Origin: a virus
Taxonomy: Duplodnaviria; Heunggongvirae; Uroviricota; Caudoviricetes
Reading direction: 5' to 3' (one strand)
Virus record (IMG/VR): IMGVR_UViG_2648501110_000019
DNA length: 4,271 nt
The translations under genes were made by a program, and so were the position numbers. Position 1 is the stretch's first letter. Each line of letters opens with the position of its first letter. A model generated the notes under the pieces. The model was not told the origin of the DNA. It saw only the letters and a program-made list of their open reading frames with translations, and made no database searches. Shown in pieces: positions 3,122 to 4,226 of the stretch.

Positions 3122-3142
3122 GGGAAAAAATCGATAAACCGA

Positions 3143-3171
3143 TTGACAGGTGAAATCGGCAAACCTATTAT
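3143..3171 (+). promoter_or_regulatory. Near-consensus sigma70 promoter (TTGACA, 17 bp, TATTAT) with an overlapping inverted repeat
   Basis: -35 TTGACA at 3143-3148, 17-bp spacer, -10 TATTAT at 3166-3171. The inverted repeat CCGATT (3139-3144) / AATCGG (3154-3159) overlaps the -35 and spacer. TCGATAAA at 3131-3138 matches 7 of 8 bases of one arm of the 2333-2352 palindrome. Confidence 0.55.
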
Positions 3172-3220
3172 CTTGACATAGGTATCGAACTCACCAAAGC
3201 AATTATAGAGGATGAGAAAA

Positions 3221-3631
3221 ATGTCATCGTATATGGGATTACCAACAAATCAGCACGATGCTCTTGAGAATATTCAGCTCTTAGTAGGGACTGGTGCACT
3301 ACTGTATAGCAGCAATAACCCTGAGTTAATTGAACTTGCCAGCTCCATCCTGGCTGTAACTCAAAAATATAGCCTCACCGCGTCACGTTTATGCAAACAA
3401 AATTTAGCTATTAATTCCCAGAATCGGATTCGCACCCAACGCGAAACCTGCGGCTTAACAACCGCCGAACTCGCTAGGCTGCTCGATCTCGATGAAGAAA
3501 TTATCATCCAGTGGGAGAGCGGAGAGTACGAACCAACCATCAGCATGCTTATCCCTCTGGCTAATGTTCTTGGCTGTGATCCAATGTTGTTATTGACTGA
3601 TGCTTATAAACAAAATCAGGAGGAAGCATAA
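3221..3631 (+). CDS. Uncharacterised protein with C-terminal XRE-family HTH, 136 aa, unknown N-terminal domain of about 70 aa
   Basis: ORF-track ORF 3212..3631. Start preferred at ATG 3221 because GAGG (3208-3211) gives 9-nt spacing, whereas ATG 3212 is only 1 nt from it. The C-terminal segment IRTQRETCGLTTAELARLLDLDEEIIIQWESGEYEPTISMLIPLANVLGCDPMLL is a canonical XRE HTH. First gene after the strong promoter. Confidence 0.75.
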   Translation: MSSYMGLPTNQHDALENIQLLVGTGALLYSSNNPELIELASSILAVTQKYSLTASRLCKQNLAINSQNRIRTQRETCGLTTAELARLLDLDEEIIIQWESGEYEPTISMLIPLANVLGCDPMLLLTDAYKQNQEEA

Positions 3632-3632
3632 G

Positions 3633-3824
3633 ATGAAAATGTTCAAAGGCCTTACCAACGAACCGGAGACAACTTTTCATCACATTGCCGTACTGCTTGA
3701 AGCGGGGTTAATCATTTCGGCTTCCGGTGATGAAGAATGTGATGAACTTTCGGATGATATCTTTTTACTGGCACAACAATACGCCAGAAGCGCATGCGAT
3801 GCATTTAAGGAGCAAAGAACATGA
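3633..3824 (+). CDS. Small acidic hypothetical protein, 63 aa
   Basis: ATG 3633 lies 1 nt after the upstream TAA stop (3629-3631), with AGGAGG (3618-3623) 9 nt upstream. Protein MKMFKGLTNEPETTFHH... has about 12 Asp/Glu against 5 Lys/Arg. Start shifted from ORF-track 3600 to the RBS-supported ATG. Confidence 0.6.
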   Translation: MKMFKGLTNEPETTFHHIAVLLEAGLIISASGDEECDELSDDIFLLAQQYARSACDAFKEQRT

Positions 3825-4012
3825 AAACTCCATTAAATATTCTTGAGGAAGTGGCAGCACAAATAAAAGAGAATACATCAATGCTTGAATTTATATTTAA
3901 GAATTCGCCCGACTCAGGAGAGACAGACGATTATTTATGTTGCCTCATTCGCTCCATGAATAAAACCTGTGAAATGGCTTACGCGTATATCGACACACTG
4001 CGCAACGAATAA
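3821..4012 (+). CDS. Small acidic hypothetical protein, 63 aa, translationally coupled to the upstream gene
   Basis: ATGA start/stop overlap at 3821-3824 and AAGGAG (3808-3813) 7 nt upstream. Protein MKTPLNILEEVAAQIKENTSMLEF... has about 11 Asp/Glu against 6 Lys/Arg. Stop TAA at 4010-4012. Confidence 0.6.
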   Translation: MKTPLNILEEVAAQIKENTSMLEFIFKNSPDSGETDDYLCCLIRSMNKTCEMAYAYIDTLRNE

Positions 4013-4094
4013 AGAAAACTCAATAAACAATCACCCATAAAAACATAACGGTCTCTGGTCGGGAATTTCCACAACCTGAAAATGGTGGTGATGC

Positions 4095-4226
4095 ATGAAA
4101 AACAGAAGTGCTTATAAAACCGCATTATTAATGGCTAATGCAGGATACTGGTCAGTTGCAATACTGTTTCTCAGTAAGCGTCGTCTCAGCACCGTCTGGC
4201 AGATCCTGAAATTCCTGAGAGAATAG
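4095..4226 (+). CDS. Possible small membrane peptide, 43 aa (MKNRSAYKTALLMANAGYWSVAILFLSKRRLSTVWQILKFLRE)
   Basis: ATG 4095-4097 to TAG 4224-4226, read directly. GGTGG (4084-4088) lies 6 nt upstream. One hydrophobic stretch (ALLMANAGYWSVAILFL) followed by a basic tail. No terminator between it and the upstream gene, so it is probably the last gene of the same operon visible here. Not in the ORF track because of its size. Confidence 0.35.
   Translation: MKNRSAYKTALLMANAGYWSVAILFLSKRRLSTVWQILKFLRE

Follow-up and report, generated by a model that had tools for sequence, protein, structure and literature searches.

In the 4,271-nt stretch of viral DNA held as IMG/VR record IMGVR_UViG_2648501110_000019 (the whole of which is hereafter called the window), a cI-like repressor gene is followed by a strong promoter and a run of small open reading frames (ORFs) encoding a 136-amino-acid (aa) protein with a helix-turn-helix (HTH) domain, two 63-aa proteins, here called A and B, and a short peptide. 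We propose, with a probability of roughly 0.5, that this run forms the promoter-proximal stretch of an early-left (PL-type) operon in a lambdoid prophage that is defective, lacks N and is related to Shiga toxin (Stx)-converting phages, and that it encodes an early module in which free helical hairpins modulate a regulator by hairpin association. As the beginning of an early-left operon controlled by CI, the unit is of an ordinary kind; what it encodes is uncharacterised, unusually organised, and widespread in Stx-type prophages. New here are the homology between the N-terminal domain (N-domain) of the 136-aa protein and A, the homology between B and the N-domain of another regulator allele (P0151), the purifying selection on A and B, and the recurring order of the module.

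The first gene of the run (3221..3631, plus strand) encodes an acidic modular protein (isoelectric point (pI) 4.4, net charge -9), whose description draws on Pfam, PHROG 4836, an AlphaFold2 (AF2) model and a family alignment. A helical-hairpin module at the N-terminus (about aa 1-62, nt 3221-3406, plus strand) is followed by a linker and then by an XRE/HTH_3 domain (aa 68-125, nt 3422-3595, plus strand). The C-terminal XRE domain, read by a first-pass annotation from the letters alone, was recovered by Pfam as HTH_3 (PF01381) with an E value of 2.4e-10 and 40.7 bits against a gathering score cutoff of 23. In Foldseek searches the HTH domain of the protein model matched P22 C2 (TMt 0.88), and a search with the full model matched that domain only. 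The 136-aa protein, A and B retrieved PHROG families 4836, 4587 and 6882 with E values of 2e-50, 6.5e-33 and 1.2e-40, respectively, of which 4836 is labelled 'CII-like regulator' and the other two are of unknown function. The 'CII-like' label comes without experimental support: the protein has no similarity to lambda CII, and its gene lies in the PL, not the PR, operon.

Proteins A (3633..3824, plus strand) and B (3821..4012, plus strand) follow at once, with a TAAgATG junction between the 136-aa gene and A and an ATGA junction between A and B. Both ORFs, their junctions and their acidity (pI about 4.5 for each) had been described correctly in the first-pass annotation, which had also proposed the profile searches and structure predictions reported here. 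The N-domain of the 136-aa protein matches phrog_4587, the family of protein A, with an E value of 1.6e-5, and hhalign of the N-domains against the A family gives a probability of 93% and an E value of 2.7e-7 over 55 gap-free columns with the same start. One N-domain type (type 4) matches A at 38% identity by tblastn. AF2 predicts for the N-domain a short beta-hairpin followed by two long antiparallel helices (predicted local distance difference test (pLDDT) about 84) and for A a beta-hairpin followed by a two-helix hairpin of the same fold (pLDDT 93.4). The N-domain is, as these profiles and models indicate, a helical hairpin homologous to A, which would make A a free-standing, A-type paralogue of the module in the preceding gene. 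Protein B, a free-standing B-type module, aligns from its residue 1 with the N-domain of P0151 (BLASTP E value 6e-11, 34% identity). Pairwise BLASTP among the N-domain, A and B yielded no match, so profile methods were required to see homology between the modules. Judged by these alignments, A and B are free-standing copies of modules that elsewhere form the N-termini of the same regulator family. Prophages whose regulator has two HTH domains carry a single 66-aa gene in place of A and B, the product of which resembles the type-3 N-domain by eye.

Other searches added little to this picture. Sequence searches of the PDB with A and B returned nothing significant, Pfam matched neither A, B nor any of 19 family members and has no model for the hairpin module, and PADLOC returned only generic HTH matches for the 136-aa protein and none for A, B or the peptide. 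Among solved structures and folds, only the HTH domain (e.g., P22 C2 and C.AhdI) and generic helical hairpins were recognised, and no characterised homologue was retrieved by these searches. Literature searches by PHROG identifiers and WP accessions found no functional study.

Compared with copies 73-79% identical to them, A has a ratio of nonsynonymous to synonymous substitution rates (dN/dS) of 0.21 and B one of 0.07-0.10, at dS values of 0.7-1.2, and the same copies keep both the 63-aa length and the two coupled junctions. A and B are under purifying selection. The order of the genes beside CI-like repressors is likewise conserved in other prophages, including a distant one (L093) in which cI is followed by a 192-aa hairpin-HTH protein, a 121-aa protein with an A-type hairpin at its end, a 140-aa protein with a B-type module at its start, and a 35-aa homologue of the peptide. 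Taken together, the dN/dS values and the shared order in L093 indicate that the four genes form a conserved module and are not relics of recombination. Between its cI and PL-type promoter, L093 also has a 293-aa gene on the opposite strand (2962-3843 of that locus, minus strand); this gene gives a weak BRCT match and has the look of an inserted accessory gene (moron).

An exhaustive hidden Markov model search returned only 53 representative clusters of the hairpin, all of which were either free proteins of 60-90 aa or the N-termini of HTH proteins. In the fused members a highly variable N-domain of 65-90 aa is followed by one, two or three HTH_3 domains, and the HTH domain is nearly invariant and very acidic while the N-terminal hairpin varies. 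Three relatives from outside the window (P0213, P0220 and P0224; 280-347 aa) combine an A-type hairpin with two or three tandem HTH_3 domains; in some of these domains the recognition helix looks conventional, in contrast to its acidic counterpart in the window. A long-form allele (P0127) occurs in at least 1,000 contigs, and the collection indexes it in 1,920 blocks. N-less 'Eru' phages have been described in work on Stx-phage regulatory regions (PMC8044961, PMC8951638), and the genes discussed here are treated in neither of these two papers.

The repressor gene itself (2385..3077, plus strand; 230 aa) encodes an HTH domain and an S24 peptidase domain (Pfam Peptidase_S24, E value 7.5e-17), and its counterpart in strain E110019 is annotated as a LexA-family regulator. 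Its transcript would end at an intrinsic terminator (3096..3121, plus strand) with a GCCCAC/GTGGGC stem, 7 bp long and GC-rich, a 4-nt loop and a T8 tail. As the first-pass annotation had stated, a near-consensus sigma-70 promoter stands directly after this terminator (3143..3171, plus strand): TTGACA (3143-3148) and TATTAT (3166-3171) are separated by 17 nt and agree with the consensus at 11 of 12 positions. By Markov simulations, a match this good is expected by chance about 0.10 times per window, and a second match of equal quality at 773, antisense inside a gene, looks like such a chance occurrence. The promoter at 3143 is convincing because of its context, not by score alone.

That context consists of repeated palindromes. 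A perfect 20-bp palindrome lies between cI and cro (1978-2268), within TTTATCGGAAAGCCGATAAA (2332..2353), and is presumed to be an OR-type operator; its core, ATCG-N6-CGAT (2336-2349), recurs exactly in only one other place in the 4.3-kb window, namely as ATCGATAAACCGAT (3130..3143), which abuts the -35 hexamer. A second operator-like site with one mismatch, ATCGGCAAACCTAT (3155..3168), lies in the spacer and overlaps the -10 hexamer, at a centre-to-centre distance of 25 bp from the first. The inverted repeat noticed earlier over the -35 hexamer, CCGAT-N11-ATCGG, does exist and is made up of the inner halves of these two sites. Each of four other immunity types has a palindrome of its own that is common to its cI-cro region (OR) and its PL, e.g., ATCAA-N7-TTGAT, AATAG-N6-CTATT and TTTCGAAA. 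By this anatomy the promoter is an early one of PL type, most likely repressed by CI in the lysogen, with the neighbouring cI product as its presumed regulator. The terminator scan also calls the palindrome at 2332-2353 a terminator-like hairpin on the minus strand. By eye, a plausible weak promoter for cI, TAGAAT-17-TAAACT, can be read with this palindrome in its spacer, an arrangement that would suggest autoregulation of cI.

This layout bears on two expectations of the first-pass annotation. The genes had been taken for a lysogeny-expressed cassette; with two copies of an immunity-specific palindrome from the cI-cro region flanking and overlapping the promoter, the layout is that of a classic early promoter shut by the prophage repressor, and expression in the lysogen is therefore unlikely. 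The operon had also been thought to be regulated, possibly by its own HTH protein. Regulation is supported by the operator-like sites, but the choice of regulator is not, since the HTH domain is nearly invariant across prophages with entirely different PL and operator sequences, which makes autoregulation through these sites unlikely.

The genes occupy the position that N holds in lambda, the start of the early-left operon, and no N homologue was found in Pfam, PHROG or NCBIfam and no RNA element in Rfam. The earlier statement that none of the products matches N, CIII, Kil, Ral, Rex or SieB was borne out, nor was any Pfam family other than HTH detected. In relatives, one strand carries Q, the replication genes, a gene in the cII position and a YdaS-like cro, and the divergent strand carries cI (HTH plus S24 peptidase), the genes described here, about 15 further small genes, xis and int. 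The order cro (YdaS-like), divergent cI, HTH gene and, further on, xis and int is conserved among the relatives. The leftward operon reaches xis and int in the intact relatives phi467, E110019 and L003, while the copy in the window is interrupted by an IS66 element at 4175. What had been described as a compact small-gene operon is indeed a tightly packed unit with a strong, regulated promoter beside the repressor gene, but the four genes are not self-contained, as transcription in the intact relatives would go on through some 15 more genes to xis and int. The three ORFs of 136, 63 and 63 aa are annotated genes in the relatives (RefSeq).

The fourth ORF, of 43 aa (4095-4226), had been read as a single-helix membrane peptide and a possible Kil-like or toxin-like effector. 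It is a chimera: aligned with E110019 and phi467, the phage sequence stops at 4174, and from 4175 the window reads GTAAGCGTCGTC..., a stretch that more than 1,600 E. coli records carry unchanged ahead of the IS66 tnpA. Positions 4175..4271 (plus strand; tnpA ATG at 4255) are thus the left end of an IS66-family insertion sequence (IS), whose terminus, GTAAGCG, starts at exactly base 4175 and is identical in three unrelated contexts, with tnpA annotated 80 nt inside; the ends of IS66 elements start with GTAAGCG. A boundary left of 4175, considered because megablast matches began at 4161-4164, was ruled out by the multiple alignment. What remains of the phage gene (4095..4174, plus strand) is the 5' part of a conserved 32-37-aa basic peptide gene, comprising 26 full codons and 2 nt of codon 27, and with this truncation the conserved C-terminus is lost.

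In uninterrupted relatives the ORF is 32 aa long (MKNRSAYKTALLMANAGYWSVAILFLRKAYGK). Homologues of 32-37 aa with a conserved C-terminus, LRKAYG(K/R), are present in 89/90 sequences surveyed (89 fetched loci plus the window), and the gene has a dN/dS of 0.1-0.24. The peptide gene is real, and its product is a basic peptide with a pI of about 10. One such homologue, KTACLIAQHGDSYLHIANLYLRKAYGR, has a grand average of hydropathy of -0.40, and most variants are not hydrophobic. The reading as a membrane or Kil-like peptide is accordingly unsupported, as the C-terminus in the window is IS-derived and the homologues are mostly not hydrophobic. Shortly before the peptide gene lies a non-coding element of some 35 nt (4048-4082; ACGG..CCGGGGATT..CACAACCTGAA), conserved among prophages that otherwise diverge there (L003 at about 5935-5970, L093 at about 5510-5545). 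It could form a 4-bp hairpin with one compensatory change, which is weakly supported (alifold -4.4 kcal/mol), and the intergenic RNA fold over 4010-4100 gave z = -0.05.

As to how the module might work, we propose that CI, and probably also the Cro analogue, would hold the operon off in the lysogen, and that the operon would fire at once upon infection or induction. The hairpin would serve as a protein-protein association module, and the free hairpins A and B may form hetero-associations with the hairpin-XRE protein, or with same-family regulators of other prophages, and so modulate them soon after induction, thereby tuning early gene expression or the lysis-lysogeny decision. In the SinR/SinI system, a small protein homologous to the helical-hairpin domain of the regulator binds that domain and inactivates the regulator, and our best guess is that A and B act in a manner like SinI titrating SinR. 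What points to regulation in the first place is that A and B appear to be stand-alone modules of the adjacent regulator family.

Several points weigh against this proposal. CI binding to the palindromes is inferred from sequence. The HTH domain carries a net charge of about -6, and its recognition helix reads DLDEEIIIQWE against GVSNVAISQWE in P22 C2, so that the 136-aa protein may be no DNA-binding regulator; such an acidic domain may act through protein contacts rather than DNA. By hhalign, A-type and B-type modules share no detectable homology, and the type that occurs free does not follow the one joined to the regulator, which speaks against strictly cognate pairs. Finally, regulator and free hairpins are co-transcribed here, whereas SinI and SinR are separately regulated.

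The same proteins could instead form an immunity-specific anti-repressor or commitment switch, in which the cognate CI (or Cro) would be recognised by the variable hairpin, CI would be sequestered by the acidic XRE domain or by the acidic free hairpins, and repression would collapse irreversibly once PL fires. We consider this unlikely. It would fit the strong acidity of all three proteins, a recognition helix that looks unsuited to DNA, the place of the 136-aa gene as the first expressed from PL, and a 1:1 linkage between N-domain type and CI type in 83 loci of five types. However, physical adjacency suffices to account for the linkage and is its simplest reading: cI and the N-domain are separated by no more than about 145 bp, made up of immunity-specific operator DNA, and the conserved HTH-coding DNA is the first crossover point available. 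In heteroimmune phages, DNA identity begins at the domain boundary inside the HTH gene (window position about 3430), and neither the HTH-domain count nor the cassette of free hairpins follows the N-domain and CI types. The N-domain and CI may be functionally co-specific. The free hairpins show no linkage to CI type, and Pfam and PHROG searches revealed no similarity to Ant, Tum or Gifsy factors. A further thought, which we hold to be distinctly doubtful, is that hairpin modules are specificity types for conflict or cross-talk between prophages: in each phage the early acidic XRE protein would bear one type, and free 'decoys' of other types would disable the early regulators, or the CI or Cro, of co-resident heteroimmune lambdoid or Stx prophages. 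If so, the decoy hairpins would decide which prophage is induced, and hence the Shiga-toxin output of polylysogens.

The first-pass annotation had suggested that the acidic pair are DNA mimics or anti-defence factors, that is, small early proteins that neutralise host or prophage defence. A and B are indeed small, acidic (pI 4.5) and early-expressed, and the nearby early-left region of the relatives holds accessory genes (ORF6N/Ant-like, Lar, ParE-like and SPFH). Nevertheless, we rate this function as quite improbable, as A and B are homologous to N-terminal modules of the neighbouring regulator family, keep a fixed order beside the regulator even in a prophage as distant as L093, which shuffled accessory genes typically do not, have no Pfam or PADLOC match and only PHROG families of unknown function, and stand behind a promoter whose anatomy speaks against lysogenic expression. 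That A and B are non-functional N-terminal fragments left by recombination between regulator genes is hardly credible, and the selection analysis largely refutes it. In its favour, the locus is evidently a lambdoid mosaic whose joints fall at the domain boundary, and the forms with one and two HTH domains look like recombination products between HTH repeats; yet relics would not be expected to show dN/dS values of 0.07-0.21 at dS 0.7-1.2, to conserve their 63-aa length and coupled junctions in 73-79% identical copies, or to recur in that order in L093 as parts of larger proteins.

Judging from its alignments, the window comes from a lambdoid prophage of E. coli and is mosaic, and its copy of the module belongs to a defective remnant of the immunity region. 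A prophage of strain E110019, like a few other genomes, is colinear with positions 1416-4174 at 97-99.7% identity, and the Stx2f phage phi467 matches 1703-4174 in two aligned pieces that cover 25% of the window. Left of 1416 the window changes to unrelated lambdoid late-region DNA. Because colinearity with the immunity region begins only at 1416, the element lacks the replication genes and is a remnant that has been rearranged. The segment 1-1415, unrelated to the E110019-type prophage, has a 94% match to Stx1a phages. Within it, 1-470 resembles the lambda late-regulatory region downstream of Q, with a DUF3950/YlcI-like ORF at 328-468, and a gene with a TonB_C domain lies at 601-942 on the minus strand. 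About 290 nt of the interval 1416-1860 are apparently non-coding, with a C-rich repeat (CCCCCCTTACCCCCCTTACCC) near 1580, and the cII-position gene has its 3' end in this interval. Escherichia phage Fostie, Yersinia phage YP3 and Cronobacter phage ENT39118 share 86-90% identity with it. Rfam gave no match in this interval, and the non-coding stretch might be an origin or a regulatory element. In their early-left operon, intact relatives carry a ParE-family toxin-like gene (L002 10645-10863 and L003 6645-6863), followed at a distance by SPFH/Band_7, ORF6N/Ant-like and Lar genes. Any of these could supply the accessory or exclusion functions that the first-pass annotation expected beside the repressor.

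Many Stx-converting and related E. coli prophages that lack N have this module at the head of the early-left operon, and the role of the first early proteins bears on commitment to lytic growth and hence on toxin production. Three 'hypothetical proteins' are turned here into a testable model, a regulator family with swappable N-terminal hairpin modules, free copies of these and a conserved basic micro-peptide, and the expectation of lysogeny-expressed exclusion genes is corrected.

Among known systems, the 'atypical CI' proteins of Stx phages (Clade VIII), described as lacking an S24 domain and having an extra HTH domain, with their function unexplored (PMC8951638), share with the 213-232-aa forms of our family a two-HTH architecture and a place adjoining the true cI. 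We liken the two by architecture only, and the copy in the window differs in having a single HTH domain.

The arrangement as a whole recalls the lambda PL/OL region in having a strong promoter beside cI on the side away from cro, two operator copies about 25 bp apart that overlap this promoter and are also present in the cI-cro region, and, in intact relatives, a long leftward operon with small regulatory proteins within it that ends at xis and int. It differs from lambda in that the first gene encodes an acidic hairpin-XRE protein, that a terminator stands between cI and the promoter, that no N antiterminator, nut-like element or Rfam match was found here, and that the products have no homology to CIII, Kil, Ral or SieB. 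The SinR/SinI pair (and SlrR/SlrA) of Bacillus subtilis differs in its domain order, which is reversed relative to the N-terminal hairpin here, and there is no sequence homology to SinI or SinR and no Pfam match; the free hairpins here are, moreover, co-transcribed with the regulator, whose HTH domain is strongly acidic. What the Sin proteins and the module described here have in common is an XRE-family HTH protein that carries a helical-hairpin module, accompanied by adjacent genes for hairpin homologues of about 60 aa.

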